A DNA stretch of 64,000 nucleotides from Eledone cirrhosa. Its lineage: Eukaryota. Of this stretch, positions 8,416 to 56,091 are shown in pieces (positions within the stretch are counted from its first letter, which is position 1; each line of letters opens with the position of its first letter). A model generated the notes under the pieces. The model was not told the origin of the DNA. It searched no databases and worked only from the letters and a program-made list of their open reading frames with translations. Location: positions 32,302,001-32,366,000 of the forward strand of contig OZ024742.1 of NCBI GenBank assembly GCA_964016885.1. Reading direction: 5' to 3'. Made by a program: the position numbers and the translations under genes.

Positions 8416-8471
8416 TTTGTACCTTGATTCCAGTCTATGATTATGTGCAGGGGATGGCAGGTTGTTCTGAT

Positions 8472-9815: not shown

Positions 9816-10448
9816 ATAAATATGCTGCGCAAGTTAAATGAAACGTACTGTAGAAGGCAACTGTTTATTAACAGCGAAATAACGTTTTTTTTCCTGATAC
9901 TGCTTCTTTATAATAAACTTTCAATAATATTTTTCAAATTATTAACTTTCAGCTGCTAGTATATATATATATAATTAAAAGGTGTATGTGGGTTAGAAGC
10001 GAAGTTAATGTTCAGAAATATTTTACCAATGTACGTAAGATTAGCCGGTATAGTGTCTCACACGAAATAGTGTGGTTTCTTTTCACGTGTGTGTATATGC
10101 ATATGGTATATATCTGTATATAAATCTGTGTGTATATTGTTGTTTATATGTTTTGTGGAGTACTTACTGCGATCCCTAAGGGATGTAGTGATTTGTTTTT
10201 TTGTTTTTTCCCCCCCGTCCATGTCCACACGTGGTTTGTTGGCGAAAATCAAGTCAAATTATATATACTTCGTTAAGATAATTCTATCTTGAAACTGGTA
10301 CTAGTTGTCAGGGAACAGTCAAAGTAATTGTAATAATGAATATTGTAATCCATCTGACATGTGTTTAAAGGGCAGTTTTTGGTGAAAATATTATATTTTG
10401 TTTGGTCAAGACGTGGTCAAGCGACCTTCCTTGTCGCCATTTTGGCCG

Positions 10449-24699: not shown

Positions 24700-27600
24700 T
24701 GAGAGATAATCTGCTGAGGGCCACAAATGACATTTGTGGCTGGAGCAAGGCCCCATGGAGGAGGGGAATGGCTTGGTGGTGGAACAGTAAGGTGGATGAG
24801 ACAATTAAGGACAAGAGACAAGCATGGAAAGAATGACAGAATCGGGAAAGCAGATAACTTTATCAAGAAGCTAGAAAACGAGTATACTTTGCAAGGAGAA
24901 AATTAAGCACGTTTTGCAACACGAGGACCAAAGACGGGAGATGTTCAGGGTTGTGAGGCAGTGTAACAAGGAAAATTGTGATGTTGTTGGGGAGAAGTGT
25001 ATCCAAGATGATAATGGCACACTTGCCCTCACTGACACTGAAAATAAAGTAGCTTGGAAGTGATATTATGGAAGATTATTGAACGAGGAGAATGCATGGA
25101 AGAAAGAAAGTGTCTCAACTGGACCCTACAGTGGGACTAGCCATACAAGTCAGCAGCAGTGTAGTAAGACAATTAAGGATATGAAGACAGGCAAAGCAGT
25201 TGGACATCAGGGATAGTTGCTGAAAGCATCTGGGATGGTGGGTCATACCTTAACCACCTGTACCATAAACCAAGTAATATAGAATAGTGTCATACCTAGT
25301 GACTGGTGTAGCAACAGCATCACCAACTGCTACAAGGGCAAAGGTGATGCAGAAGACATCAGAAATTATAGAGGGATCAAGTTGACAGACAAGGTCATAA
25401 AAGTTAGAGAAAAAGTTATTACAGAGCTGATTAGGGACTAAATTAACCTAGATGAGATCATCATCATCATCACCGTTTTACGTCCGTTCTTCCACGCTAG
25501 CATGGGTTAGACGGGTTGTCCTGTTGTGTGCAGTGTCTGGTCGGCTGACCATGCCTTGCTCATACAGGAACTGATCTGGCTTGATTTCTACAGCTGGATG
25601 CCCTTCCTAACACCAACCTCATTTACAGTGAGTGCTGGGTGCTTTTTCGTGGTGCCTACACGTCCACTTTACAGTGTGGGCTGGGTACTTTTTTGCCGTG
25701 GCACCTCCACGACCACCTTGCGGTGGGGGGGGTATGGGGGCATATTGTTTATATGCTTCAGCATGTACCCATGGGAGGTCGGGTACTCTGTATTACTGCG
25801 TGACGCCAGAAGTCACGGTCGTGTGTCATTGTCTTTGAGAGGTGTAGTTGGGTAAGGTCGGCTTTTATCACCTCATCCCAGGTCATCTTGGGTCTCCCCA
25901 CTCCGCGGTTTCCATCAACTTCTAGTGCTCTGCACCTTTTTATGCAGCTGTCATCCTTCATACGCATCACATGTCCATACCAGCGCAACCGCCTCTCCTG
26001 CACACAGCATTTGATTCCTCTTATGCTCAGTCTCTCTCTCAATTCATTTATGCTTTGTCGTTCACGTATATTACTGTTACACATCCATCGGAGCATGCAG
26101 GCTTCGTTTCTCTCTAATCTACGTAAGTCTTCCACCTTCAGCGCCCAGGTCTCACTACCATGCAACATCGCTGTTCGGATACACGCATCATACAGTCTGC
26201 CTTTCATTCTGAGGGAGAAGCCTTTTGCAGCTAGCAGTGGTAGTAGTTCCCTAAACTTCTTCCATCCCGTTCTTACCCTAATTATTGTACTTTCTGAACA
26301 CCCACCTCCGTTGCTAATTCGGTCACCTAGGTAGCAGAAGCTGTCTACTGTTTCTACAGGGCCCTCCCAGAGATTGGTGGTACTTGTTTCCTGTGGCTGT
26401 TTGCTGCTTGCTGTTTCAGCACAGCTGCTGCATGTGAATCCTACATTCTTAATTAAGCTTCCTGAGATCCCGCTACATCTCTTGTGTACCCATTGTTTGC
26501 ATTTGGGGCAGAGGATGGAGTTCCTACCTACACCTTTCCTACATACTGAGCAAGGCCATTTCCCTGAGGGGATCTGGGTTCTGTTTTCTCGTCTACTTAC
26601 AAGGACCTTAGTCTTTGTCATGTTGACTTTGAGACCCTTTCTTTCTAGTCCCTGCTTCCAGGTTTGGAATTTATTCTCTAGTTCTACCATAGATTCAGCT
26701 ATGAGTGCGAGGTCATCAGCATACAGGAGTTCCCATGGGCATCCGGTCTTAAACTTCTCCGTTATTGCCTGCAGGACTATGATGAACAGGAGAGGGCTAA
26801 GAACAGAGCCCTGGTGGACCCCAACCTGTACGCTAAATTCCTCGCTATACTCATTGCTAATCCTAACTTTGCTGACTGCTCCCCTATACATGGCTTGTAC
26901 CGCTTTCACAAGCCATTCATCTACTCCTAGTTTTCTAAGAGCCCACCAGATTACCGCACGTGGAACTCTGTCAAAGGCTTTCTCAAGGTCGACAAATGCC
27001 AAGTAGAGTGGCTTACTTTTAGCTAGGTACTTTTCCTGTAATTGCCTCACAAGGAAGAGGGCATCAGTGGTGCCTCTTCCTGGTACAAACCCAAATTGCA
27101 TCTCGTCTATATTCACCCGGTCCCTAATCAGCTGTGCTATAACTCTTTCTGTTACTTTCATGACCTGGTCCATCAACTTTATACCTCTATAGTTTCCTCT
27201 ATCTAGTGCATCGCCTTTACCTTTGTAGCAGTTGACAATGATGCTACTGCACCAATCTTTTGGTATGGCCCCTTCTAGTATTACCTGGTTAACGATACGT
27301 GTGGTTATAGTGTGACCTACAGACCCAGATGCCTTCAGCATCTCGGCAGCTATACCCGATGGACCGGTTGCCTTCCCCATCTTCATATCTTTGATTGCCT
27401 TACTTACTACGCTGCTGCTGACTTGTACTGCTGGTCCCTCTATAGGGTCTACTTGGGGAAGGGTCTCTTCTTCCCATGCATTCTCCTCATTTAGTAATCT
27501 ATCATAATGACTCTTCCATGCATCTTTCTTCTCAGCACTTGTGAGGGCAAGCTCACCTTTATCATTCCGGATACACTTCTCTCCAATGACATCACAACTC

Positions 27601-28745
27601 TCTCTGACACACTGCCTTGCAATCTTGAACACCTCCTGTTTCTGGTCCTCGCGTTGCAAAACATGCTTGAATTTTCTATCCTCTGCTTCCCTCCTAGCTA
27701 AGTATACTTGTAGCCTAGCTTCCCTCTTGGTCTCTATGTAATGAACCCTGCTCCCCCGTTCTTCCATTCTTTCCATGCCTGTCTCTTGGCCTTAACTGCT
27801 TCATCTATCTTATTGTTCCACCACCAAGTCACTCTCCTCCTGCTTGAGGTCTTACTCCAGCCACAGACCTCATCCGTCGCCTCTAGTAAATTATTTTTTA
27901 GGAACTCCCAGTTCTCTTCTACATTAAATGTCTATCTGTTCTTCTTTACTGTCGTAGGCGTTGAGTAAAATATCTTTAAATCTGTTACTGGTTGAGGGGA
28001 CTTTGTAGTTTGGATTTGTAGCATGTAAAAGTAACACTGATACCCTCTTCCTTGTGAGGCAATTGAAATTGTGCATAGACCCTCTACTTGACATTTGTTT
28101 ACCTAGAGAAAGTATTTGACTGAGTCCCCTGTTCCATAATCTGGTGGTCTCTTAGAAAACTAGGGTGGTACAAGTCATGTACAGAGAAGCATTCAGCAAG
28201 ATTAAAATTAATAATGCTTATAGTGAAGAATTTAGCATGCAAGTTGGGGTCCATCAGGAATCTGTTCTTAGCCCTCTCCTGTTTTTTTATCAGCCTGCAA
28301 GCTATAACGGAAGAGTTTAAGACTGGTTGCCCATGGGAACACTTATATGCCAATGATCTAACCATTATTAAAGAAGAAATTCCAGACCTGGAAGCAAAAG
28401 GTCTAAAAGTCAACTTGGCAAAAACTAAAGTAGAAAGAAAAACAGGGCTCTGATCCCTTCAGGGAAATGGCCTTGCTCAGTGTGCAGCAACGGAGTGGTT
28501 AGAAATTCCATCCTATCTTCCAAATGCAAACTACAAGTACACAAGATTTGCAGTGGGATCTCAAGCAGGCTAACAAAGAACATAGGTTTCATATGTAGTC
28601 AATGCACAGAAGCAGTAAACAGCAAGAAGCTTGGGATGAAGTGATAAAAGCTGACCTTGCACACTTAAAATCTCAAAGGAGCTGACACAAGATCAAGATC
28701 TCTGGTGTCATGCTGTACTGCAAAAGACCCTACCCCCGTGTGCAC
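24700..28745 (+). mobile_element. Older degenerate RTE LINE split by the young minus-strand copy (24700-25458 and 28005-28745)
   Basis: The two halves rejoin as ..CTAGATGAGAT|GTAGTTTGGATTTGTA.. (LDEM.FGFV), collinear with the plus-strand RTE. Confidence 0.85.
25459..28004 (-). mobile_element. Young 5'-truncated RTE LINE with intact RT ORF (25758-27776)
   Basis: 672-codon open frame nearly identical to the 20150 copy; (CAT)n tail at 25459-25471. Confidence 0.95.
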
Positions 28746-31064: not shown

Positions 31065-31715
31065 AAATTCATTTTTCCTTGCTAGCATGGGTTTGAGTTG
31101 TCCTGTTGTGAGCAATGCCAAGTCAGGTGACAATCCCATGCTCATACAAAACTGATTTTAGCTTGGTTTCTACAGTTGGATGCCTTTCCTAATGCCAGCT
31201 TCATTTACAGTGTGGGCTGGGTGCTTTTTGTCGTGTCACCATCACAACCACTTTACAGTGTGGGCTGGGTGTCTTTTGCTGTGTCACCATCACGACCACT
31301 TTACAGTGTGGGCTGGGTGCTTTATGCCGTGTCACCATCAGGACCACTTTACAGTGTGGGCTGGGTGCTTTATGCCGTGTCACCATCACAACCACTTTAC
31401 AGTGTGGGCTGGGTGCCTTTTGCTGTGTCACCATCACGACCACTTTACAGTGTGGGCTGGGTGCCTTTTGCAAAGTCGCCATCACGACCACTTTACAGTG
31501 TGGGCTGGGTGCCTTTTGCAATGTCGCCATCACGACCATTTTACAGTGTTGGCTGGGTGCCTTTACAGTGTGGGCTGGGTGCCTTTTGCAATGTCGCCAT
31601 CACGACCACTTTACAGTGTGGGCTGGAGACTTCCCTAGATGCATGCTTCAGCCTGTCCTCATGGGAGATGTATGGGAGGGTGAGGTGGTGTATACAATAT
31701 ATATGCTTCAGCTAA
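31065..31715 (-). repeat. RTE 3' UTR relic with a 48-bp minisatellite (~9 copies, 31203-31625)
   Basis: Unit CACTTTACAGTGTGGGCTGGGTGCCTTTTGCTGTGTCACCATCACGAC; both flanks match the RTE 3' UTR at 25470-25780. Confidence 0.88.
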
Positions 31716-38060: not shown

Positions 38061-38690
38061 ATTTGTTTTAAGAATTATGCTGCCTATAGAAGTAGATAAT
38101 AGCTCCTGGAACTTTTTCCACCCAATATGGTTTCACTTATGCCTTCCCAATACACACTACTGCCAAATAGTTTTCTGAAACTGTCTAACTTGACAGATAG
38201 ACAAATACCGAAACAGCTCTTGATAACATAAGAGATAGATAGATCGATACATGGATAAGAAGACATCTAGATGGAAATAGGAACAGAAATAAACAGCTAG
38301 AAATATAGACCAACCAGCTAGATCGGTGAACAGAGAGATAATTGCACAAGTTATAGAAATAGAGCAGAATAGACATCTGCATATATATATATATATAGTT
38401 AGATGGAAAGCTAGAGAGATAAACACAGAGATATACAGAACTAGATGGACAGGTAGACAGACATCTAAATGAACATGTCGAGTTAGATAGCAAAATAAAC
38501 AAGTTCAGAGAGATAGCTAGATGGACATGTAGAGAGACATAAATAGCTAGAGAGAAAGAAAGAGGTAGAAAGATACAGAGACACAGCTAGATGGACATGA
38601 GAGGTGTAGCTAGATGGAGAGAAATGGACAGGCAAAGAGAGAGACAAGTAGAGAGATAGACAGCTAGGTGGACAGGTAGAGAGAGAGATA

Positions 38691-39884
38691 AATTTCTTTA
38701 TTAGCCACAAGGGCACAAAAGATGGGGACAAATACAAATGGGGAGTTTACATAAAGGTATATGAAAATAAAACTTAATAAAATAAGATATGTTTCTTTTA
38801 TTTGCCACTAGGGCATCAAAAGTGGGACAAGTACAAAGGGGGGAGTTTACACAAAAAGGCGTCCTCAATAAGGAGGAGGCAATAACAAAATATAAAAATA
38901 AAATAAGATATAACAAAAAATAAAATTTATAACAAAATCCTCAATAGAGAGGAGGCGCCTTGGGGGGGTCGCACACACCCCCGAAAAAAGTGTGCAACCC
39001 TTTTCCTCAGGAGCACAGAGAGGGGGTGCTCCCTCGTTCCTTCCTCTTTTCCACCTACAGGCTTATGTAAAGAGAAGGCCCATTCACACGGGCCATTCTC
39101 GCCACTTTCACCCACCTTTCATAAAAACGACTGGGGTGCAGCACCTCTCTCTCCATCCTGATCCTTCTTCCGAAATGATATCGGAAGAAACGGACCAGTT
39201 GTTGGCCAGAGAGAAAGGTGCCTGACCTCAGTCCTTTCAGACGCGTCCACCATACAACCTCTTTCGCCATGGCTATTAAGCACAGAAACACCGCCTCTGC
39301 TTCATCTTTGAAGGGGGGAGGCGGCTTGATCATTACAATAGACTCGGTGGTCAACCGGATCGGTCCCACCCTTGACAGCAGTTGTTCGACATAGCCCCAC
39401 AGATCGGCTACGCCCGAGCAGTGTACCAATGCGTGTGCAACGGTTTCCTCGTCGCACACGCATATGGGACAGATCTTTTTGGCGGGGTCCCTACCCGGGT
39501 GCCCGTGTCTGTAGAGCCTTTCTCGAACGGGTAAAGCCCCTCGGTAGCACTGCCAGGTCAGGGACTTCTGGAAGTTGTCCATAGGTCCCGGGCTGAATGT
39601 CCTACCGAACAGGCTGGCCAGTTCGTCTTCCTCCATGTCTAGGGCTTCTCCGAGGGCGTCGTCGCACCTGCTGCGTACCAGCCCTCTATAGAATGTTGCG
39701 GTGGAGTCTCCACTGATAACCGGATCCGCCTGCCAGAGGGCGGTGAGCGCCTGGGCACACTCAGTGTGCCAGGCGCCCAGTTTTCTCGGTCTTTGCTTGA
39801 CCCAGGATTGCAGCTCGGTGAGTGAGACGAGTCTGGGAAAGGTTCGTCTCACAAACGAGGCCCACACCGGTTGTCCGGTGAGGA
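38691..39884 (-). mobile_element. Tx1/L1-group retrotransposon 3' fragment, copy 1, with an extra diverged 3' end at 38691-38789
   Basis: ORF 39055-39867 has SLTWQCYRGALPVRERL..CPIC..EETVAHALVHC (zf-RVT/CCHC end of L1/Tx1 ORF2), followed by a pyrimidine-rich 3' UTR and AATAAA; GC-rich relative to its surroundings. Confidence 0.88.
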
Positions 39885-42415
39885 AGAGATAGACAGCTAT
39901 GTGGACAAGTAGAGACAGAGATAGCTAGGTGGACAGGTAGAGAGATAGACAGCTCTGTGGACAAGTAGAGACAGAGATAGCTAGGTGGACAGGTAGAGAC
40001 AGAGATAGCTAGGTGGACAGGTAGAGAGAGAGATAGCTATGTGAACAGGTAGAGAGAGAGACAGCTGTCTCTCTCTACCTGTCCACCCAGCTATGTGGAC
40101 AGGTAGAGACAGAGAGACAGCTAGGTGGACAGGTAGAGACAGAGAGACAGCTAGGTGGACAGGTAGAGAGAGAGAGATAGCTAGGTGGACAGGTAGAGAG
40201 AGGGAGAGAGAGAGAGGTGGACAGGTAGAGAGAGAGACAGCTAGGTGGACAGGTAGAGAGAAAGAGACAGCTATGTGGACAGGTAGAAAGAGAGAGACAG
40301 CTATGTGGACAGGTAGAGGGAGAGAGACAGCTATGTGGACAGGTAGAGAGAGAGAGATAGCTAGGTGGACAGGTAGAGAGAGACAGCTAGGTGGACAGGT
40401 AGAGAGAGAGAGAGACAGCTAGGTGGACAGGTAGAGAGAGAGAGAGACAGCTAGGTGGACAGGTAGAGAGAGAGAGACAGCTAGGTGGACAGGTAGAGAG
40501 AGAGAGACAGCTAGGTGGACAGGTAGAGAGAGAGAGACAGCTAGGTGAACAGGGAGAGAGAGAGAGAGATAGCTAGGTGGACAGGTAGAGAGAGAGAGAT
40601 AGCTAGGTGGACAGGTAGAGAGAGAGAGACAGCTAGGTGGACAGGTAGAGAGAGAGACAGCTAAGTGGACAGGTAGAGAGAGTGACAGCTAAGTGGACAG
40701 GTAGAGAGAGTGACAGCTAAGTGGACAGGTAGAGAGAGTGACAGCTAAGTGGACAGGTAGGGAGAGAGAGAGACAGCTAGGTGGACAGGTAGAGAGAGAG
40801 AGACAGCTAGGGGGACAGGTAGAGAGAGAGAGAGATAGCTAGGTGGACAGGTAGAGAGAGAGAGAGACAGCTAGGTGGACAGGTAGAGAGAGAGAGAGAC
40901 AGCTAGGTGGACAGGTAGAGAGAGATAGGTGGACAGGTAGAGAAAGATAGACAGCTAGGTGGACAGGTAGAGAGAGAGAGACAGCTAGGTGGACAGGTAG
41001 AGAGAGAGAGACAGCTAGGTGGACAGGTAGAGAGAGAGAGAGACAGCTAGGTGGCCTGGTAGAGAGAGATAGCTAGGTGGACAGGTAGAGAGAGAGAGCT
41101 AGGTGGACAGGTAGAGAGAGAGAGACAGCTAGGTGGACAGGTAGAGAGAGAGAGACAGCTAGGTGGACAGGTAGAGAGAGAGACAGCTAGGTGGACAGGT
41201 AGAGAGAGAGAGACAGCTGTCTCTCTTTACCTGTCCACCTAGCTAGGTGGACAGGGAGAGAGAGTGATAGCTAGGTGGACAGGTAGAGAGAGAGAGATAG
41301 CTGTCTCTCTCTCTCTCTACCTGTCCACTTAGCTGTCTCTCTCTCTACATGTCCACCTAGCTAAGTGGACAGGTAGAGAGAGTGACAGCTAAGTGGACAG
41401 GTAGAGAGAGAGAGACAGCTAGGTGGACAGGTAGAGAGAGAGACAGCTAGGTGGACAGGTAGAGAGAGAGAGATAGCTAGGTGGACAGGTAGAGAGAGAG
41501 AGATAGCTAGGTGGACAGGTAGAGAGAGAGAGATAGCTAGGTGGACAGGTAGAGAGAGAGAGATAGCTAGGTGGACAGGTAGAGAAAGAGACAAAGGTGG
41601 ACAGGTAGAGAGAGAGAGACAGCTAGGTGGACAGGTAGAGAGAGAGAGACAGCTAGGTGAACAGGGAGAGAGAGAGAGAGAGATAGCTAGGTGGACAGGT
41701 AGAGAGAGAGAGATAGCTAGGTGGACAGGTAGAGAGAGAGAGACAGCTAGGTGGACAGGTAGAGAGAGAGATAGCTAGGTGGACAGGTAGAGAGAGAGAC
41801 AGCTAGGTGGACAGGTAGAGAGAGAGACAGCTAAGTGGACAGGTAGAGAGAGAGACAGCTAAGTGGACAGGTAGAGAGAGTGACAGCTAAGTGGACAGGT
41901 AGAGAGAGTGACAGCTAAGTGGACAGGTAGAGAGAGAGAGAGACAGCTAAGTGGACAGGTAGGGAGAGAGAGAGACAGCTAGGTGGACAGGTAGAGAGAG
42001 AGAGACAGCTAGGGGGACAGGTAGAGAGAGAGAGATAGCTAGGTGGACAGGTAGAGAGAGAGAGAGAGAGACAGCTAGGTGGACAGGTAGAGAGAGATAG
42101 GTGGACAGGTAGAGAGAGAGAGAGAGAGCTAGGTGGACAGGTAGAAAAAAATAGACAGCTAGGTGGACAGGTAGAGAGAGAGAGACAGCTAGGTGGACAG
42201 GTAGAGAGAGAGATAGCTAGGTGGACAGGTAGAGAGAGAGAGACAGCTAGGTGGACAGGTAGAGAGAGAGAGAGACAGCTAGGTGGACTGGTAGAGAGAG
42301 ATAGCTAGGTGGACAGGTAGAGAGAGAGAGACAGCTAGGTGGACAGGTAGAGAGAGAGATAGCTAGGTGGACAGGTAGAGAGAGACAGCTAGGTGGACAG
42401 GTAGAGAGAGAGATA

Positions 42416-43279
42416 AGTTTCTTTTATTTGCCACTAGGGCATCAAAAGTGGGACAAGTACAAAGGGGGGAGTTTACACAAAAAGGCGTCCTCAATAAGGA
42501 GGAGGCAATAACAAAATATAAAAATAAAATAAGATATAACAAAAATAAAATTTTTAACAAAATCCTCAATAGAGAGGAGGCGCCTTGGGGGGTCGCACAC
42601 ACCCCCGAAAAAAGTGTGCAACCCTTTTCCTCAGGAGCACAGAGAGGGGGTGCTCCCTCGTTCCTTCCTCTTTTCCACCTACAGGCTTATGTAAAGAGAA
42701 GGCCCATTCACACGGGCCATTCTCGCCACTTTCACCCACCTTTCATAAAAACGACTGGGGTGCAGCACCTATCTCTCCATCCTGATCCTTCTTCCGAAAT
42801 GATATCGGAAGAAACGGACCAGTTGTTGGCCAGAGAGAAAGGTGCCTGACCTCAGTCCTTTCAGACGCGTCCACCATACAACCTCTTTCGCCATGGCTAT
42901 TACGCACAGAAACACCGCCTCTGCTTCATCTTTGAAGGGGGGAGGCGACTTGATCATTACAATAGACTCGGTGGTCAACCGGATCGGTCCCACCCTTGAC
43001 AGCAGTTGTTCGACATAGCCCCACAGATCGGCTACGCCCGAGCAGTGTACCAATGCGTGTGCAACGGTTTCCTCGTCGCACACGCATCTGGGACAGATCT
43101 TTTTGGCGGGGTCCCTACCCGGGCGCCCGTATCTGTAGAGCCTTTCTCGAACGGGTAAAGCCCCTCGGTAGCACTGCCAGGCCAGGGACTTCTGGAAGTT
43201 GTCCATAGGTCCCGGGCTGAATGTCCTACCGAACAGGCTGGCCAGTTCGTCCTCCTCCATGTCTAGGGCTTCTCCGAGG
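42416..43279 (-). mobile_element. Tx1/L1-group retrotransposon 3' fragment, copy 2, 11-bp TSD
   Basis: Near-identical to 38790-39654 but more 5'-truncated; AGAGAGAGATA at 42405-42415 and 43280-43290. Confidence 0.9.
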
Positions 43280-46200
43280 AGAGAGAGATAGCTAGGTGGA
43301 CAGGTAGAGAGAGAGATAGCTAGGTGGACAGGTAGAGAGAGTGAGACAGCTAGGTGGACAGGTAGAGAGAGAGAGACAGCTAGGTGGACAGGTAGAGAGA
43401 GAGAGACAGCTGTCTCTCTTTACCTGTCCACCTAGCTAGGTGGACAGGGAGAGAGAGTGATAGCTAGGTGGACAGGTAGAGAGAGAGAGATAGCTGTCTC
43501 TCTCTCTCTCTACCTGTCCACTTAGCTAGGTGGACATGTAGAGAGAGAGACAGCTAAGTGGACAGGTAGAGAGAGTGACAGCTAAGTGGACAGGTAGAGA
43601 GAGAGAGACAGCTAGGTGGACAGGTAGAGAGAGAGACAGCTAGGTGGACAGGTAGAGAGAGAGATAGCTAGGTGGACAGGTAGAGAGAGAGAGATAGCTA
43701 GGTGGACAGGTAGAGAGAGAGACAGCTAGGTGGACAGGTAGAGAGAGACAGCTAGGTGGACAGGTAGAGAGAGAGAGACAGCTGTCTCTCTTTACCTGTC
43801 CACCTAGTTAGGTGGAGAGGTAGAGAGAGTGATAGCTAGGTGGACAGGTAGAGAGAGAGAGATAGCTAGGTGGACAGGTAGAGAGATAGAGACAGCTAAG
43901 TGGACAGGTAGAGAGAGAGAGACAGCTAGGTGGACAGGTAGAGAGATAGAGACAGCTAGGTGGACATGTAGAGAGAGAGACAGCTAAGTGGACAGGTAGA
44001 GAGACAGCTAGGTGGACAGGTAGAGAGAGAGACAGCTAGGTGGACAGGTAGAGAGAGACAGCTAGGTGAACAGGTAGAGAGAGAGAGATAGCTATGTGGA
44101 CAGATAGATAGAGAGAGAGACAGCTAGGTGGACAGGTAGAGAGAGAGAGAGAGACAGCTAGGTGGACAGGTAGAGAGAGAGAGAGAGACAGCTAGGTGGA
44201 CAGGTAGAGAGAGAGAGAGAGACAGCTAGGTGGACAGGTAGAGAGACAGCTAGGTGGACATGTAGAGAGAGAGAAAGATAGCTAGGTGGACAGTTAGAGA
44301 GAGAGAAAGATAGCTAGGTGGACAGTTAGAGAGAGAGACAGATAGGTGGACAGGTAGAGAGACAGACAGCTAGGTGGACAGGTAGAGAGAGAGAGACAGC
44401 TAGGTGGACAGGTAGAGAGAGAGACAGCTAGGGGGACAGGTAGAGAGAGAGAGATAGCTAGGTGGACAGGTAGAGAGAGAGAGAGACAGCTAGATGGACA
44501 GGTAGAGAGAGATAGGTGGACAGGTAGAGAGAGAGAGAGAGCTAGGTGGACAGGTAGAGAAAGATAGACAGCTAGGTGGACAGGTAGAGAGAGAGAGACA
44601 GCTAGGTGGACAGGTAGAGAGAGACAGCTAGGTGGACAGGTAGAGAGAGAGATAGCTAGGTGGACAGGTAGAGAGAGTGAGACAGCTAGGTGGACAGGTA
44701 GAGAGAGAGAGACAGCTAGGTGGACAGAGAGAGACAGCTGTCTCTCTTTACCTGTCCACCTAGCTAGGTGGACAGGGAGAGAGAGTGATAGCTAGGTGGA
44801 CAGGTAGAGAGAGAGAGATAGCTGTCTCTCTCTCTCTCTACCTGTCCACTTAGCTGTCTCTCTCTCTACATGTCCACCTAGCTAAGTGGACAGGTAGAGA
44901 GAGTGACAGCTAAGTGGACAGGTAGAGAGAGAGACAGCTAGGTGGACAGGTAGAGAGAGAGACAGCTAGGTGGACAGGTAGAGAGAGAGACAGCTAGGTG
45001 GACAGGTAGAGAGAGACAGCTAGGTGGACAGGTAGAGAGAGAGAGACAGCTGTCTCTCTTTACCTGTCCACCTAGTTAGGTGGACAGGTAGAGAGAGTGA
45101 TAGCTAGGTGGACAGGTAGAGAGAGAGAGATAGCTAGGTGGACAGGTAGAGAGATAGAGACAGCTAAGTGGACAGGTAGAGAGATAGAGACAGATAAGTG
45201 GACAGGTAGAGAGATAGAGACAGCTAGGTGGACAGGTAGAGAGAGAAAGACAGCTAGGTGGACAGGTAGAGAGATAGAGACAGCTAGGTGGACATGTAGA
45301 GAGAGAGACAGCTAAGTGGACAGGTAGAGAGAGAGACAGCTAAGTGGACAGGTAGAGAGACAGCTAGGTGGACAGGTAGAGAGAGAGAGATAGCTATGTG
45401 GACAGATAGATAGAGAGAGAGACAGCTAGGTGGACAGGTAGAGAGAGAGAGAGAGAGACAGCTAGGTGGACAGGTAGAGAGAGAGAGAGAGACAGCTAGG
45501 TGGACAGGTAGAGAGAGAGAGAGAGACAGCTAGGTGGACAGGTAGAGAGACAGCTAGGTGGACATGTAGAGAGAGAGAAAGATAGCTAGGTGGACAGTTA
45601 GAGAGAGAGACAGATAGGTGGACAGGTAGAGAGAGAGACAGCTAGGTGGACAGGTAGAGAGAGAGAGACAGCTAGGTGGACAGGTAGAGAGAGAGACAGC
45701 TAGGTGGACAGGTAGAGAGAGAGAGAGACAGTTAGGTGGACAGGTATAGAGAGAGACAGCTAGGTGGACAGGTAGAGAGAGAGAGACAGCTAGGTGGACA
45801 GGTAGAGAGATACAGCTAAGAGGGCAGGTAGAGAGAGAGAGAGAGATAGCTAGGTGGACAGGTAGAGAGACAGCTAAGTGGACAGGTAGAGAGACCGCTA
45901 GGTGGAAGGTAGAGAGACAGCTAGGTGGACAGGTAGAGAGACAGCTAGGTGGACAGGTAGAGAGACAGCTAGGTGGACAGGTAGAGAGACAACTAAGTGG
46001 ACAGGTACAGAGACAGCTAGGTGGACAGGTAGAGAGACAGCTAGGTGGACAGGTAGAGAGACAGCTAAGTGGACAGGTAGAGAGACAGCTAAGTGGACAG
46101 GTAGAGAGACAGCTAAGTGGACAGGTAGAGAGACAGCTAAGTGGACAGGTAGAGAGACAGCTAGGTGGACAGGTAGAGAGACAGCTAGGTGGACAGGTAG

Positions 46201-49200
46201 AGAGACAGCTAGGTGGACAGGTAGAGAGACAGCTAAGTGGACAGGTAGAGAGACAACTAGGTGGACAGGTACAGAGACAGCGAGGTGGACAGGTAGAGAG
46301 ACAGCTAGGTGGACAGGTAGAGAGACAGCTAAGTGGACAGGTAGAGAGACAGCTAAGTGGACAGGTAGAGACAGCTAAGTGGACAGGTAGAGAGACAGCT
46401 AGGTGGACAGGTAGAGAGACAGCTAGGTGGACAGGTAGAGAGACAGCTAAGTGGACAGGTAGAGAGACAGCTAAGTGGACAGGTAGAGAGACAGCTAGGT
46501 GGACAGGTAGAGAGACAGCTAAGTGGACAGGTAGAGAGACAGCTAGGTGGACAGGTAGAGAGACAGCTAAGTGGACAGGTAGAGAGACAGCTAGGTGGAC
46601 AGGTAGAGAGACATCTAAGTGGACAGGTATAGAGACAGCTAAGTGGACAGGTAGAGAGACAGCTAGGTGGACAGGTAGAGAGAGAGAGACAGCTAGGTGG
46701 ACAGGTAGAGAGAGACAGCTAGGTGGACAGGTAGAGAGAGACAGCTAGGTGGACAGGTATGGAGAGAGACAGCTAGGTGGACAGGTATGGAGAGAGACAG
46801 CTAGATGGACAGGTAGAGAGAGAGACAGCTAGGTGGACATGTAGAGAGAGAGAGACAGCTAGATGGACAGGTAGAGAGAGACAACTAGGTGCACAGGTAG
46901 AGAGAGAGATAGCTAGGTGGACAGGTAGAGAGAGAGAGAGACAGCTAGGTGGACAGGTAGAGAGAGAGACAGCTAGGTGGACAGGTAGAGAGAGAGACAG
47001 CTAGGTAGACAGGTAGAGAGAGAGATAGGTGGACAGGTAGAGAGAGAGAGAGACAGCTAGGTGGACAGGTAGAGAGAGACAGCTAGGTGGACAGGTAGAG
47101 AGAGACAGCTAGGTGGACAGGTATGGAGAGAGACAGCTAGGTGGACAGGTATGGAGAGAGACAGCTAGATGGACAGGTAGAGAGAGAGACAGCTAGGTGG
47201 ACATGTAGAGAGAGAGAGACAGCTAGATGGACAGGTAGAGAGAGACAACTAGGTGCACAGGTAGAGAGAGAGATAGCTAGGTGGACAGGTAGAGAGAGAG
47301 AGAGACAGCTAGGTGGACAGGTAGAGAGAGAGACAGCTAGGTGGACAGGTAGAGAGAGACAGCTAGGTGGACATGTAGAGAGAGAGAGAGATTGATAGGT
47401 GGACATGTAGAGAGAGAGAGAGCTAGGTGGACAGGTAGAGAGAGAGAGAGACAGCTAGGTGGACAGGTAGAGAGAGAGAGAGACAGCTAGGTGGACAGGT
47501 AGAGAGAGAGAGACAGCTAGGTGTACAGGTAGAGAGAGAGAGAGCTAGGTGGACAGATAGATAGAGAGAGAGACAGCTAGGTGGACAGGTAGAGAGAGAG
47601 AGAGAGAGACAGCTAGGTGGACAGGTAGAGAGAGAGAGAGAGACAGCTAGGTGGACAGGTAGAGAGAGAGAGAGAGACAGCTAGGTGGACAGGTAGAGAG
47701 AGAGAGAGAGACAGCTAGGTGGACAGGTAGAGAGACAGCTAGGTGGACATGTAGAGAGAGAGAAAGATAGCTAGGTGGACAGTTAGAGAGAGAGACAGAT
47801 AGGTGGACAGGTAGAGAGAGAGACAGCTAGGTGGACAGGTAGAGAGAGAGAGACAGCTAGGTGGACAGGTAGAGAGAGAGACAGCTAGGTGGACAGGTAG
47901 AGAGAGAGAGAGACAGTTAGGTGGACAGGTATAGAGAGAGACAGCTAGGTGGACAGGTAGAGAGAGAGAGACAGCTAGGTGGACAGGTAGAGAGATACAG
48001 CTAAGAGGGCAGGTAGAGAGAGAGAGAGAGACAGCTAGGTGGACAGGTAGAGAGACAGCTAAGTGGACAGGTAGAGAGACCGCTAGGTGGAAGGTAGAGA
48101 GACAGCTAGGTGGACAGGTAGAGAGACAGCTAGGTGGACAGGTAGAGAGACAGCTAGGTGGACAGGTAGAGAGACAACTAAGTGGACAGGTACAGAGACA
48201 GCTAGGTGGACAGGTAGAGAGACAGCTAGGTGGACAGGTAGAGAGACAGCTAAGTGGACAGGTAGAGAGACAGCTAAGTGGACAGGTAGAGAGACAGCTA
48301 AGTGGACAGGTAGAGAGACAGCTAGGTGGACAGGTAGAGAGACAGCTAGGTGGACAGGTAGAGAGACAGCTAGGTGGACAGGTAGAGAGACAGCTAAGTG
48401 GACAGGTAGAGAGACAACTAGGTGGACAGGTACAGAGACAGCGAGGTGGACAGGTAGAGAGACAGCTAGGTGGACAGGTAGAGAGACAGCTAAGTGGACA
48501 GGTAGAGAGACAGCTAAGTGGACAGGTAGAGACAGCTAAGTGGACAGGTAGAGAGACAGCTAGGTGGACAGGTAGAGAGACAGCTAGGTGGACAGGTAGA
48601 GAGACAGCTAAGTGGACAGGTAGAGAGACAGCTAAGTGGACAGGTAGAGAGACAGCTAGGTGGACAGGTAGAGAGACAGCTAAGTGGACAGGTAGAGAGA
48701 CAGCTAGGTGGACAGGTAGAGAGACAGCTAAGTGGACAGGTAGAGAGACAGCTAGGTGGACAGGTAGAGAGACATCTAAGTGGACAGGTATAGAGACAGC
48801 TAAGTGGACAGGTAGAGAGACAGCTAGGTGGACAGGTAGAGAGAGAGAGACAGCTAGGTGGACAGGTAGAGAGAGACAGCTAGGTGGACAGGTAGAGAGA
48901 GACAGCTAGGTGGACAGGTATGGAGAGAGACAGCTAGGTGGACAGGTATGGAGAGAGACAGCTAGATGGACAGGTAGAGAGAGAGACAGCTAGGTGGACA
49001 TGTAGAGAGAGAGAGACAGCTAGATGGACAGGTAGAGAGAGACAACTAGGTGCACAGGTAGAGAGAGAGATAGCTAGGTGGACAGGTAGAGAGAGAGAGA
49101 GACAGCTAGGTGGACAGGTAGAGAGAGAGACAGCTAGGTGGACAGGTAGAGAGAGAGACAGCTAGGTAGACAGGTAGAGAGAGAGATAGGTGGACAGGTA

Positions 49201-52200
49201 GAGAGAGAGAGAGACAGCTAGGTGGACAGGTAGAGAGAGACAGCTAGGTGGACAGGTAGAGAGAGACAGCTAGGTGGACAGGTATGGAGAGAGACAGCTA
49301 GGTGGACAGGTATGGAGAGAGACAGCTAGATGGACAGGTAGAGAGAGAGACAGCTAGGTGGACATGTAGAGAGAGAGAGACAGCTAGATGGACAGGTAGA
49401 GAGAGACAACTAGGTGCACAGGTAGAGAGAGAGATAGCTAGGTGGACAGGTAGAGAGAGAGAGAGACAGCTAGGTGGACAGGTAGAGAGAGAGACAGCTA
49501 GGTGGACAGGTAGAGAGAGACAGCTAGGTGGACATGTAGAGAGAGAGAGAGATTGATAGGTGGACATGTAGAGAGAGAGAGAGCTAGGTGGACAGGTAGA
49601 GAGAGAGAGAGACAGCTAGGTGGACAGGTAGAGAGAGAGAGACAGCTAGGTGGACAGGTAGAGAGAGAGAGACAGCTAGGTGTACAGGTAGAGAGAGAGA
49701 GAGCTAGGTGGACAGGTATAGAGAGAGACAGCTAGGTGGACAGGTAGAGAGAGAGAGAGACAGCTACGTGGACAGGTAGAGAGATACAGCTAAGTGGGCA
49801 GGTAGAGAGAGAGACAGCTAGGTGGACAGGTAGAGAGACAGCTAGTAAGAGAGGTAGAGAGACAGCTAGATGGACAGGTAAAGAGACAGCTAGGTGGACA
49901 GGTAGAGAGACAGCTAAGTGGACAGGTAGAGAGACAGCTAAGTGGACAGGTAGAGAGACAGCTAGGTGGACAGGTAGAGAGACCGCTAGGTGGACAGGTA
50001 GAGAGACAGCTAAGTGGACAGGTAGAGAGACAGCTAAGTGGACAGGTAGAGAGACAGCTAAGTGGACAGGTAGAGAGACAGCTAAGTGGACAGGTAGAGA
50101 GACAGCTAAGTGGACAGGTAGAGAGACAGCTAGGTGGACAGGTGAAGAGACAGCTAGGTGGACAGGTAGAGAGACAGCTAAGTGGGCAGGTAGAGAGACA
50201 GCTAGGTGGACAGGTAGAGACAGCTAGAGACAGCTAAGTGGACAGGTAGAGAGACAGCTAGGTGGACAGGTAGAGAGACAGCTAAGTGGACAGGTAGAGA
50301 GACAGCTAAGTGGACAGGTAGAGAGACAGCTAGGTGGACAGGTAGAGAGACAGCTAGGTGGACAGGTAGAGAGACAGCTAAGTGGACAGGTAGAGACAGC
50401 TAAGTGGACAGGTAGAGAGACAGCTAAGTGGACAGGTAGAGAGACAGCTAAGTGGACAGGTAGAGACAGCTAAGTGGACAGGTAGAGAGACAGCTAAGTG
50501 GACAGGTAGAGAGACAGCTAAGTGGACAGGTAGAGAAAGGTAGAGAGACAGCTAAGTGGACAGGTAGAGAAAGGTAGAGAGACAGCTAAGTGGACAGGTA
50601 GGTGGGCAGGTAGAGAGACAGCTAAGTGGGCAGGTAGAGAGACAGCTAAGTGGACAGATAGAGAGACAGCTAAGTGGACAGGTAGAGAGACAGCTAAGTG
50701 GACAGGTAGAGAGACAGCTAGAGAGACAGCATGGTGGACAGGTAGAGAGACAGCTAGGTGGACAGGTAGAGAGACAGCTAGGTGGACAGGTAGAGAGACA
50801 GCTAAGTGGACCGGTAGAGAGACAGTTAGGTGGACAGGTAGAGAGACAGCTAGATGGACAGGTAGAGAGACAGCTCAGTGGACAGGTAGAGAGACAGCTA
50901 AATGGACAGGTAGAGAGACAGCTAAGTGGACAGATAGAGAGACAGCTAAGTGGACAGGTAGAGAGACAGCTAAGTGGGCAGGTAGAGAGACAGCTAAGTG
51001 GACAGATAGAGAGACAGCTAAGTGGACAGGTAGAGAGACAGCTAGAGAGACAGCATGGTGGACAGGTAGAGAGACAGCTAGGTGGACAGGTAGAGAGACA
51101 GCTAGGTGGACAGGTAGAGAGACAGCTAAGTGGACCGGTAGAGAGACAGTTAGGTGGACAGGTAGAGAGACAGCTAGATGGACAGGTAGACAGACAGCTA
51201 AGTGGACAGGTAGAGAGGCAGCTAAGTGGACAGGTAGAGAGACAGCTAAGTGGACAGGTAGAGAGACAGCTAAGTGGACAGGTAGAGAGACAGCTAAGTG
51301 GACAGGTAGAGAGACAGCTAAGTGGACAGGTAGAGAGACAGCTAGGTGGGCAGATAGAGAGACAGCTAAGTGGACAGGTAGAGAGACAGCTAGAGAGACA
51401 GCTAGGTGGACAGGTAGAGAGACAGCTAGGTGGACAGGTAGAGAGACAGCTAGAGAGACAGCTAGGTGGACAGGTAGAGAGACAGCTAGGTGGACAGGTA
51501 GAGAGACAGCTAGAGAGACAGCTAGGTGGACAGGTAGAGAGACAGCTAGGTGGACAGGTAGAGAGACAGCTAGGTGGACAGGTAGAGAGACAGCTAGGTG
51601 GGCAGGTAGAGAGACAGCTGGGTGGACAGGTAGAGAGACAGCTAGGTGGGCAGGTAGAGAGACAGCTAGGTGGGCAGGTAGAGAGACAGCTAAGTGGACA
51701 GGTAAAGAGACAGCTAGGTGGACAGGTAGAGAGACAGCTAAGTGGACAGGTAGAGACAGCTAAGTGGGCAGATAGAGAGACAGCTAGGTGGACAGGTAGA
51801 GAGACAGCTAAGTGGACAGGTAGAGAGACAGCTAAGTGGACAGTTAGAGAGACAGCTAGAGAGACAGCTAGGTGGACAGGTAGAGAGACAGCTAGGTGGA
51901 CAGGTAGAGAGACAGCTAGAGAGACAGGTAGGTGGACAGGTAGAGAGACAGCTAGGTGGACAGGTAGAGAGACAGCTAGAGAGACAGCTGGGTGGACAGG
52001 TAGAGAGACAGCTAGGTGGACAGGTAGAGAGACAGCTAGGTGGACAGGTAGAGAGACAGCTAGGTGGGCAGGTAGAGAGACAGCTAAGTGGACAGGTAGA
52101 GAGACAGCTAAGTGGACAGGTAGAGAGACAGCTAGGTGGGCAGGTAGAGAGACAGCTAAGTGGACAGGTAGAGAGACAGCTAGGTGGGCAGGTAGAGAGA

Positions 52201-55200
52201 CAGCTAAGTGGACAGGTAGAGAGACAGCTAAGTGGACAGGTATAGAGACAGCTAAGTGGACAGGTAGAGAGACAGCTAGGTGTACAGGTAGAGAGACAGC
52301 TAGGTGGACAGGTAGAGAGACAGCTAGGTGGACAGGTAGAGAGACAGCTAGGTGGACAGGTAGAGAGACAGCTAGGTGGGCAGGTAGAGAGACAGCTAAG
52401 TGGACAGGTAGAGAGACAGCTAAGTGGACAGGTAGAGAGACAGCTAAGTGGACAGGTAGAGAGACAGCTAGGTGGACAGGTAGAGAGACAGCTAAGTGGA
52501 CAGGTAGAGAGACAGCTAGGTGGACAGGTAGAGAGACAGCTCGGTGGACAGGTAGAGAGACAGCTAGGTGGACAGGTAGAGAGAGAGAGACAGCTAGGTG
52601 GACAGGTAGAGAGAGAGAGACAGCTAGGTGGACAGGTAGAGAGAGAGAGACAGCTAGGTGGAGAGGTAGAGAGATACAGCTAAGTGGGCAGGTAGAGAGA
52701 GAGACAGCTAGGTGGACAGGTAGAGAGACAGCTAGGTGGACAGGTAGAGAGACAGCTAGGTGGACAGGTAGAGAGACAGCTAGGTGGACAGGTAGAGAGA
52801 CAGCTAGGTGGACAGGTAGAGAGACAGCTAGGTGGACAGGTAGAGAGACAGCTAGGTGGACAGGTAGAGAGACAGCTAGGTGGACAGGTAGAGAGACAGC
52901 TAGGTGGACCGGTAGAGATAGGTAGAGAGACAGCTAAGTGGACAGGTAGAGAGACAGCTAAGTGGACAGGTAGAGAGACAGTTAGGTGGACAGGTAGAGA
53001 GACAGCTAGATGGACAGGTAGAGAGACAGCTAAACGGATAGGTAGAGAGACAGCTAGGTGGACACGTAGAGAGACAGCTAAGTGGACAGGTAGAGAAAGG
53101 TAGAGAGACAGCTAAGTGGACAGGTAGAGAGACAGCTAAGTGGACAGGTAGAGAGACAGCTAGGTGGGCAGATAGAGAGACAGCTAAGTGGACAGGTAGA
53201 GAGACAGCTAAGTGGACAGGTAGAGAGACAGCTAAGTGGACAGGTAGAGAGACAGCTAAGTGGACAGGTATAGAGACAGCTAAGTGGACAGGTAGAGAGA
53301 CAGCTAGGTGGACAGGTAGAGAGACAGCTAGGTGGACAGGTAGAGAGACAGCTAAGTGGACAGGTAGCGAGACAGCTAGGTGGACAGGTAGAGAGACAGC
53401 TAAGTGGACAGGTAGAGAGACAGCTAAGTGGACAGGTAGAGAGACAGCTAAGTGGACAGGTAGAGAAAGGTAGAGAGACAGCTAGGTGGACAGGTAGAGA
53501 GACAGCTAAGTGGACAGGTAGAGAGACATCTAGCAGGACAGGTAGAGAGACAGCTAGGTGGACAGGTAGAGAGACAGCTAGGTGGACAGGTAGAGAGACA
53601 GCTAAGTGGACAGGTAGAGAGACAGCTAAGTGGACAGGTAGAGAGACAGCTAGGTGGACAGGTAGAGAGACAGCTAGGTGGACAGGTAGAGAGACAGCTA
53701 GGTGGACAGCTAGAGAGACAGCTAAGTGGACAGGTAGAGAGACAGCTAGGTGGACAGGTAGAGAGACAGCTAAGTGGGCAGATAGAGAGACAGCTAGGTG
53801 GACAGGTAGAGAGACAGCTAAGTGGACAGGTAGAGAGACAGCTAGGTGGACAGGTAGAGAGACAGCTAAGTGGACAGGTAGAGAGACAGCTAGGTGGACA
53901 GGTAGAGAGACAGCTAAGTGGGCAGATAGCGAGACAGCTAGGTGGACAGGTAGAGAGACAGCTAAGTGGACAGGTAGAGAGACAGCTAGGTGGACAGGTA
54001 GAGAGACAGCTAAGTGGACAGGTAGAGAGACAGCTAGGTGGACAGGTAGAGAGACAGCTAAGTGGACAGGTAGAGAGACAGCTAGGTGGACAGGTAGAGA
54101 GACAGCTAAGTGGACAGGTAGAGAGACAGCTAAGTGGACAGGTAGAGAGACAGCTAAGTGGACAGGTAGAGAGACAGCTAAGTGGACAGATAGAGAGACA
54201 GCTAGGTGGACAGGTAGAGAGACAGCTAAGTGGACAGGTAGAGAGACAGCTAGGTGGACAGGTAGAGAGACAGCTAAGTGGGCAGATAGAGAGACAGCTA
54301 GGTGGACAGGTAGAGAGACAGCTAAGTGGACAGGTAGAGAGACAGCTAAGTGGACAGGTAGAGAGACAGCTAAGTGGACAGGTAGAGAGACAGCTAAGTG
54401 GACAGATAGAGAGACAGCTAGGTGGACAGGTAGAGAGACAGCTAAGTGGACAGGTAGAGAGACAGCTAGGTGGACAGGTAGAGAGACAGCTGAGTGGACA
54501 GGTAGAGAGACAGCTAGGTGGACAGGTAGAGAGACAGCTAAGTGGACAGGTAGAGAGACAGCTAGGTGGACAGGTAGAGAGACAGCTAAGTGGACAGGTA
54601 GAGAGACAGCTAGGTGGACAGGTAGAGAGACAGCTAAGTGGGCAGATAGAGAGACAGCTAGGTGGACAGGTAGAGAGACAGCTAAGTGGACAGGTAGAGA
54701 GACAGCTAGGTGGACAGGTAGAGAGACAGCTAGCTGGACAGGTAGAGAGACAGCTAAGTGGACAGGTAGAGAGACAGCTAGGTGGACAGGTAGAGAGACA
54801 GCTAAGTGGGCAGATAGAGAGACAGCTAGGTGGACAGCTAAGTGGACAGGTAGAGAGACAGCTAGGTGGACAGGTAGAGAGACAGCTAAGTGGACAGGTA
54901 GAGAGACAGCTAGGTGGACAGGTAGAGAGACAGCTAAGTGGGCAGATAGAGAGACAGCTAGGTGGACAGGTAGAGAGACAGCTAAGTGGACAGGTAGAGA
55001 GACAGCTAGGTGGACAGGTAGAGAGACAGCTAAGTGGACAGGTAGAGAGACAGCTAGGTGGACAGGTAGAGAGACAGCTAAGTGGACAGGTAGAGAGACA
55101 GCTAGGTGGGCAGATAGAGAGACAGCTAGGTGGACAGGTAGAGAGACAGCTAAGTGGACAGGTAGAGAGACAGCTAGGTGGACAGGTAGAGAGACAGCTA

Positions 55201-56091
55201 AGTGGACAGGTAGAGAGACAGCTAGGTGGACAGGTAGAGAGACAGCTAAGTGGACAGGTAGAGAGACAGCTAGGTGGACAGGTAGAGAGACAGCTAAGTG
55301 GACAGGTAGAGAGACAGCTAGGTGGACAGGTAGAGAGACAGCTAAGTGGACAGGTAGAGAGACAGCTAAGTGGACAGGTAGAGAGACAGCTAGGTGGACA
55401 GATAGAGAGACAGCTAGGTGGACAGGTAGAGAAAGGTAGAGAGACAGCTAAGTGGACAGGTAGAGAAAGGTAGAGAGACAGCTAAGTGGACAGGTAGAGA
55501 GACAGCTAAGTGGACAGATAGAGAGACAGCTAGGTGGACAGGTAGAGAGACAGCTAAGTGGACAGGTAGAGAGACAGCTAGGTGGACAGGTAGAGAGACA
55601 GCTAAGTGGACAGGTAGAGAAAGGTAGAGAGACAGCTAAGTGGACAGGTGGAGAGACAGCTAGGTGGACAGGTAGAGAGACAGCTAAGTGGACAGGTAGA
55701 GAGACAGCTAGGTGGACAGGTAGAGAGACAGCTAAGTGGACAGGTAGAGAGACAGCTAAGTGGACAGGTAGAGAGACAGCTAAGTGGACAGGTAGAGAGA
55801 CAGTAAGAGAGGTAGCTAAGCGGATAGGTAGAGAAAGGCACAGACAGACATGGAGAAATAGACAGCTGTAAAGATAACTATATTGATGTGTAAAGATATA
55901 GTTATAGAAACAGGTAGAAAATGTTTGACAGCTATATGGTTCGTTAGGTATACAGGTAAAGAGACGCTACTAGATGCGATACAGACAGATGTACAAATAT
56001 AATGGCTATGTGGTCAGACAGACCCGTAGTTTAACAGCCTGACAGATTGAAAGGCAAAATACTTCCTATATGTGTGCGTGTGTGTGTGTAT

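Follow-up and report, generated by a model that had tools for sequence, protein, structure and literature searches.

We describe a minisatellite array of Eledone cirrhosa in which single repeat units lie inverted among forward neighbours, and focus on one 24-nt unit, here termed m5, which occurs in opposite orientations in sister copies of the same higher-order block. The window, that is, the whole stretch of DNA analysed, comprises 64,000 nucleotides (assembly GCA_964016885.1, contig OZ024742.1, positions 32,302,001 to 32,366,000 of the forward strand), and coordinates below refer to it. Splitting at the tetranucleotide AGCT divided the array into 536 tokens, 11 of them with an inverted core.

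39899 to 55817, plus strand: minisatellite array

The base monomer of 24 bp is AGGTGGACAGGTAGAGAGAC plus AGCT, a palindrome at its end, and Tandem Repeats Finder called the array with a period of 24 and ~593 copies. The right ~10 kb is made of 24-bp monomers with a regular 48-bp AGG/AAG dimer, all forward, and the left ~5 kb of (GA)n-expanded monomers of 26–36 bp arranged in higher-order copies. Monomers run head to tail and multi-monomer blocks recur in the same order, which places the array among higher-order-repeat minisatellites. When the 3.0-Gb genome (1796 contigs) was searched for copies of the array or its motifs, all 17 matches to a 31-mer of the expanded monomer type fell inside the array, and a 52-nt dimer gave 136 matches with up to 3 mismatches, all forward and, among the matches listed, in the array in 100 cases out of 100. 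These searches found no other haplotigs or further loci of the array, and the 16-kb minisatellite is a single locus in the genome.

Three blocks in the left part carry the same run of seven monomers, m1 to m7, and two related blocks, designated B' and C', follow blocks B and C. Their positions are as follows.

41219 to 41420, plus strand: block A, with m1 inverted, m2, m3, m4 inverted, m5 inverted, m6 and m7
43412 to 43613, plus strand: block B, with m1 inverted, m2, m3, m4 inverted, m5 forward, m6 and m7
44740 to 44939, plus strand: block C, with m1 inverted, m2, m3, m4 inverted, m5 inverted, m6 and m7
41335 to 41358, minus strand: m5 core of block A, inverted state, 0 mismatches
43528 to 43551, plus strand: m5 core of block B, forward state, 0 mismatches
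44856 to 44879, minus strand: m5 core of block C, inverted state, 0 mismatches
43784 to 44009, plus strand: primed paralogue block B', with m1 inverted, followed by forward monomers, among them an m4-like AAGTGG monomer (forward) and an exact forward m5 at 43958 to 43981
45052 to 45341, plus strand: primed paralogue block C', with m1 inverted and an exact forward m5 at 45286 to 45309

The five m5 sites in this list are the only exact copies (0 mismatches) of the 24-mer in the window, so that the preliminary description was right to place it inverted in A and C and forward in B. The block starts given there (~41215, ~43408 and ~44736) are the AGCT directly before m1, and the monomer run is the same in all three. 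Allowing up to 2 mismatches, the m5 24-mer has 146 matches in the window, of which 2 are on the minus strand, while the expectation from 100 shuffles is 0; chance cannot account for shared blocks with opposed m5 monomers. In the monomer-by-monomer alignment that had been proposed as a check, m1 to m4 and m6 are identical across A, B and C, and the orientation of m5 is the sole difference within the blocks. Base-wise extension from the core carried the identity of A and B over 162 nt leftwards and 113 nt rightwards, and that of the A–C and B–C pairs over 130 nt leftwards and 55 nt rightwards. The claim that one monomer flipped cleanly, or reverted, between the duplicated blocks is thereby upheld, with sequence and flanks unchanged.

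The preliminary description had overlooked that m4, the left neighbour of m5, is itself inverted in all three blocks. Inverted m4 and forward m6 therefore form an inverted repeat which directly adjoins m5 left and right in every block, with arms of 30 nt (93% complementary, 24 nt of them perfect) and exactly 24 nt between them in every case.

41305 to 41334, minus strand: left arm of the inverted repeat in block A (inverted m4 plus AGCT), 30 nt, 93%, 24 nt to its partner
41359 to 41388, plus strand: right arm in block A (AGCT plus forward m6), same pair
43498 to 43527, minus strand: left arm in block B (inverted m4), 30 nt, 93%, 24 nt to its partner
43552 to 43581, plus strand: right arm in block B (m6), same pair
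44826 to 44855, minus strand: left arm of the inverted-repeat pair in block C (inverted m4)
44880 to 44909, plus strand: right arm of the pair in block C (m6)

Reverse-complement symmetry is perfect for 24 nt on each side of the core, both for A against B and for C against B (24 + 24 + 24 nt). Beyond this zone the two arms diverge, m4 running on as a CT run and m6 carrying GTGAC. Because the arms are perfect over 24 nt, a stretch of 72 nt in the A/C state reads as the reverse complement of its counterpart in the B state. This identity is why a 43-mer taken from block A matches block B on the minus strand: genome-wide, the A/C-state 43-mer has three sites, in A (plus), C (plus) and B (minus). 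The breakpoints may fall anywhere in the arms, and what we call a 24-nt flip may just as well have covered any length up to 72 nt. Both states retain the arms, and the change is formally reversible. As single-stranded DNA, both states are predicted to give one and the same hairpin, a 24-bp stem closed by a 24-nt loop, at −26.5 and −26.6 kcal/mol (z = −5.1 and −7.3).

On a larger scale, m1 to m6 in the A/C state (41219 to 41390 and 44740 to 44911; orientations − + + − − +) make up a 170-nt quasi-palindrome with arms of 77 nt at 91% identity around an 8-nt centre, with a predicted folding energy of −81.7 kcal/mol, and the same monomers in the B state are predicted to form two hairpins (−58.6 kcal/mol). 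As long palindromes tend to be unstable, the m5 flip alters the predicted fragility of the block. We considered whether m1–m3 and m4–m6 represent a true inverted duplication, and rejected this, since the 91% identity of the arms seems no higher than the likeness of unrelated monomers (judged by eye) and each monomer keeps different diagnostic bases. Correction of a quasi-palindrome by intra-strand fold-back was rejected as well. In the predicted long hairpin of the A/C state the pairing partner of inverted m5 is m2, and inverted m5 keeps its own ACATGT and GAGAC and has neither the CAGGGAG nor the GTGAT of m2, which indicates inversion in place rather than copying from the opposite arm.

Taken together, m5 is the spacer of a 24-nt perfect inverted repeat, and the A/C and B states probably differ by an exact in-place inversion of this spacer, likely produced by a template switch during replication. 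A replicating strand would switch to the opposite-strand template inside one arm, copy the m5 spacer backwards and then switch back inside the other arm. Judging from the anatomy of the site and from the literature, such inter-strand switching within the 24-nt arms would be the most likely route. The founding single-monomer inversions (the monomer at 40067, m1 and m4) would have had only the 4-nt AGCT palindromes as flanking inverted repeats, and a monomer inverted in this way may then have made its neighbour a far more flippable spacer.

The m5 site has the marks of a microinversion: the segment is an exact reverse complement, inverted repeats abut it and the flanks are otherwise unchanged. 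Microinversion is a known class of mutation, and m5 adds one more example and no new mechanism. According to the part of PMC8755829 on which we draw, 59 microinversions of 17–33 nt distinguish human and chimpanzee; most are exact reverse complements, and all 59 are flanked by inverted repeats of 3–75 nt whose inner edges abut the inversion. The 24 nt of m5 fall within this size range, and m5 shares with these cases the exact reverse complementarity, the abutting perfect or near-perfect inverted repeats and the lack of other mutations. The cases described there differ in being comparisons of orthologues, whereas ours is between paralogues of one tandem array, and here the repeat itself supplies the arms, in the form of neighbouring monomers of which one is already inverted. 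The same portion of that source argues that looping recombination is physically impossible below 33 bp, accepts template switching for long perfect arms and proposes microhomology-mediated break-induced replication for short or imperfect ones.

Two further descriptions are close to the m5 case. In yeast, as reported in the part of PMC8604942 consulted, spacers between perfect arms are inverted by intermolecular template switching, in events that are recurrent and reversible; this 'flip inversion' resembles ours in that perfect arms are kept and the spacer alone is reversed, although the yeast spacers (2–5 nt) and arms (9–16 nt) lie in coding sequence, while spacer and arms are 24 nt each here and belong to a non-coding satellite. 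In the four-point model for template switches, as outlined in the section of PMC5453318 (Loytynoja and Goldman 2017) used here, the event type 1-3-2-4 inverts the spacer alone and implies an inter-strand switch. Here too a segment becomes its own reverse complement between paired inverted repeats, but 1-3-2-4 is a model and not a family of cases, which the m5 data fit and which they cannot use to demonstrate that replication was involved.

Loops of stem-loops also flip homoplastically in the hairpin-associated 'minute inversions' of plastid non-coding DNA, in an organelle genome with other recombination machinery and not in a nuclear minisatellite as here. In the recombinase-driven invertible switches of bacteria and phages, a segment between inverted repeats alternates between two stable states. 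The m5 monomer is not a member of this group, as it is too short to loop, lies in a eukaryotic satellite and has nothing regulatory visible about it.

Several points weigh against an in-place inversion by template switching, or limit how far it can be taken. The comparison is between paralogues of one assembly, with neither orthologue nor outgroup, and by itself fixes neither the polarity nor the number of events. Sequence alone cannot separate template switching from routes that repair a break. Furthermore, m2 has the same layout, between inverted m1 and forward m3, and is forward in all five copies, and m6, which lies between inverted m5 and forward m7 in A and C, is forward in both; the invariance of m2 and m6 suggests that flipping is infrequent. 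Independent read support for the orientation of m5 was not obtained either. The public data sets that matched the locus were Logan contig sets from one sample (X6 to X8, share 0.38–0.43), and some runs of other organisms had small shares; RAD-seq raw reads also matched. The Logan contigs are ~31–70 nt long, and the low-complexity palindromic repeats were skipped in aligning them, with a depth of 0 over 43416 to 43510 (within the region 43150 to 43700) and over 44734 to 44841 (within 44650 to 44990). In the 43150 to 43700 alignment, reads were seemingly cut at 43469 to 43521, and a further run (X9) covers the retrotransposon part of the locus only. The single contig over m5 (X6, 70 nt, depth 21.2; 44850 to 44903) lies inside the 72-nt symmetric zone of block C (44832 to 44903) and ends at its right edge, and is therefore compatible with the A/C state when read on one strand, and with the B state when read on the opposite one.

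The same in-place inversion could also have arisen by repair of a double-strand break in or near m5, through microhomology-mediated break-induced replication or through rejoining of two breaks via the arms or AGCT, but we regard this as unlikely. It is a route proposed for microinversions in the part of PMC8755829 cited above, and the (GA)n tracts and hairpins of the array would be plausible break sites. The founding inversions have 4-nt AGCT flanks only, and that source finds template switching hard to picture for flanks so short. The arms around m5, however, are long and perfect over 24 nt, the very case in which the source, as far as drawn on here, concedes that template switching fits, and the block alignment contains no indel scar or arm conversion at m5.

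How many events the array has undergone can be approached through its 11 inverted monomers, which fall into four classes: m1 (five copies), m4 (three copies), m5 (two copies) and one separate monomer.

40067 to 40092, minus strand: separate single inverted monomer, with AGCT on both sides

In all 11 cases the breakpoints lie in the boundary tetranucleotide, which is AGCT on both sides in 9 of the 11 and AGCT on one side with AGTT on the other in the remaining 2, which are the m1 monomers of B' and C'. Had a monomer flipped with its own AGCT attached, AGCTAGCT would instead stand on one side and nothing on the other. Four classes of inverted monomer imply at least four inversion events in the array. 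The founding inversions, with their 4-nt flanks, would match the short-flank class of PMC8755829 in their anatomy, as that class appears in the portion drawn on. At the hominid microinversion rate of ~2e-13 per nt per generation quoted in the same portion, four events in 16 kb would need ~1e9 generations. The array is thus far above the human–chimpanzee cases in this respect and looks like a microinversion hotspot, on what is a rough inference across species. All 11 inverted monomers lie within the left part of the array (39899 to 45800), and none in the ~10 kb of regular 24-bp monomers (45800 to 55817). The longer (GA)n tracts of the left part might stall replication forks and favour switching, a weak suggestion with ~4 independent events.

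The claim in the preliminary description that inversion is recurrent thus stands for the array as a whole, and only as a possibility for the m5 site. B' and C' carry a forward m5 together with a forward m4-like monomer, which makes forward the deep ancestral state. From there, one history which fits is a flip of m4, giving the B state, followed by a flip of m5, giving the A/C state. A second history fits as well: an inversion of two monomers, m5 and the AAGTGG monomer, would have given the A/C state at once, with a later re-flip of m5 in B. As this second history fits equally, an inverted m4 next to an inverted m5 does not prove two single flips, and we rejected that argument. Should A and C be sisters, a single flip of m5 is enough. 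The flanks, however, group B with C, through a derived GAGTGAGAC monomer upstream and a 28C-26C-30C run plus a primed block downstream, against the orientation of m5, which groups A with C, with about one character each way. This conflict points to homoplasy at m5 (two flips, or a flip and a reversion), to conversion among the paralogues or to unequal exchange, and recurrence at the m5 site is possible. The inversion had also been called recent, and this holds in a relative sense only, as A and B have accumulated 0 substitutions over 299 nt.

A bolder form of the hotspot idea is that it propagates itself. AGCT-bounded monomers would be ready cassettes, each flipped monomer would provide its neighbour with 24-nt arms, and the edge of the inverted domain would walk along the array, flipping back and forth. 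On this account m5 would have flipped at least twice and may still switch in the germline or soma, toggling the block between one 170-nt quasi-palindrome and two short hairpins. We put this forward as a speculation which we doubt.

An explanation without any flip in place is that B owes its forward m5 to a patch taken from the copy at 43958 to 43981, through ectopic gene conversion or through template switching, or that A and C share an inverted copy through conversion between paralogues. Possible donors are at hand, with exact forward m5 copies at 43958 (430 nt from the m5 of B) and 45286; moreover, homogenisation is suggested by an m1–m6 core that is 100% identical in all three blocks between flanks that differ, and the conflict between flank characters and flip distribution described above fits as well. 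Nevertheless, we consider conversion very unlikely. A one-monomer patch would have homology on one side only, since the left neighbour is forward in the donor and is inverted m4 in the recipient, and C has a primed neighbour at the same distance yet carries inverted m5. Conversion between A and C would account for the spread of a state and not for its origin.

Similarly improbable is an artefact of assembly, consensus or library preparation, in which one state, most likely the singleton B, would be absent from the genome or would have been made by template switching in vitro. The missing read support noted above is compatible with an artefact, and inverted repeats that form hairpins can provoke polymerase template switching in vitro. 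A consensus step, however, is unlikely to reverse-complement 24–72 nt while leaving 275 nt of flanks perfect, and both orientations occur in other contexts of the array. The locus was also assembled once, and a junction with a retrotransposon, unique in the genome, lies 250 nt from the m5 of block B. This element is the only unique anchor near block B.

42416 to 43279, minus strand: 5'-truncated fragment of a retrotransposon without long terminal repeats (non-LTR), inside one monomer, with a zf-RVT domain (PF13966, E = 3.6e-6)

The fragment lies 133 nt upstream of block B and is flanked by an 11-nt direct repeat, AGAGAGAGATA. Near block C there is a unique 22-nt monomer at 44718, and near block A a GGCCTGG-variant monomer at 41049.

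Conservative recombination between the arms, whether by homologous recombination, cruciform resolution or a site-specific invertase, has in its favour that inverted repeats enclose an invertible segment, as they formally do in recombinase switches and where non-allelic homologous recombination produces inversions, but it is hardly credible at m5, where arms of 24–30 nt are far below the usual eukaryotic requirement for homologous recombination and a 24-nt spacer cannot loop to align them (the argument of PMC8755829, in the part used here). We therefore rejected both of its specific forms: non-allelic homologous recombination, which needs hundreds of bp and a loopable spacer, and a recombinase-driven switch, as the segment is too short to loop and the 8 large open reading frames scanned in the window contained no recombinase domain, only reverse transcriptase, endonuclease, zf-RVT and PHD domains.

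Several other features of the array and its surroundings were observed. A second 5'-truncated copy of the retrotransposon lies at the left edge of the array (38785 to 39885, minus strand) and is 98.85% identical (859/869 nt) to the copy near block B. Both sit in the satellite in the same orientation and at the same monomer phase (...GGTAGAGAGAGAGATA | A...), which could be coincidence or could mean that the (GA)n-AT part of the monomer is a preferred target site. Immediately beyond the 3' end of this left copy, at 38690 to 38792, lies a diverged tandem duplicate of ~100 nt of the retrotransposon 3' end, and degenerate satellite monomers are found further left (38400 to 38690), which indicates that the array once reached further in that direction. 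Several non-LTR retrotransposon copies surround the array, and the rest of the window is rich in such elements; long open frames at 5652 to 9833 (minus), 20190 to 22408 (plus) and 25758 to 27791 (minus) contain endonuclease and reverse-transcriptase domains, and one frame has a PHD finger as well.

Within the array, a higher-order unit of ~2.16 kb recurs near-identically at 46665 to 48825 and 48826 to 49760, for example in the AGATGGACAGG monomers at 46803/48964 and 47167/49328 and in the forward ACATGT-variant monomers at 46831, 47195, 48992 and 49356; such near-identical units indicate a very recent duplication of large units. The G-rich half of the monomer (e.g. 51596 to 51619), especially in its GGGCAGG variants, is reminiscent of the G-rich core that classical hypervariable minisatellites have. 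A second minisatellite lies at 31204 to 31626, with a 48-bp unit, 7.5 copies and 92% matches, overlapped by a 70-bp period.

We found no description of single-monomer microinversions inside a minisatellite in the open-access literature searched. The m5 monomer provides a natural before-and-after pair that is unusually clean: the arms are long and perfect, the spacer measures 24 nt and nothing else has changed. It also shows a tandem array creating its own inverted repeats. As each state is the reverse complement of the other over 72 nt, neither short reads nor k-mers can tell them apart, and repeat annotation that is blind to orientation misses them. If the pattern is true of the whole array, with at least four single-monomer inversions in 16 kb and breakpoints in AGCT palindromes, satellites whose monomers end in palindromes would be predictable hotspots of microinversion.

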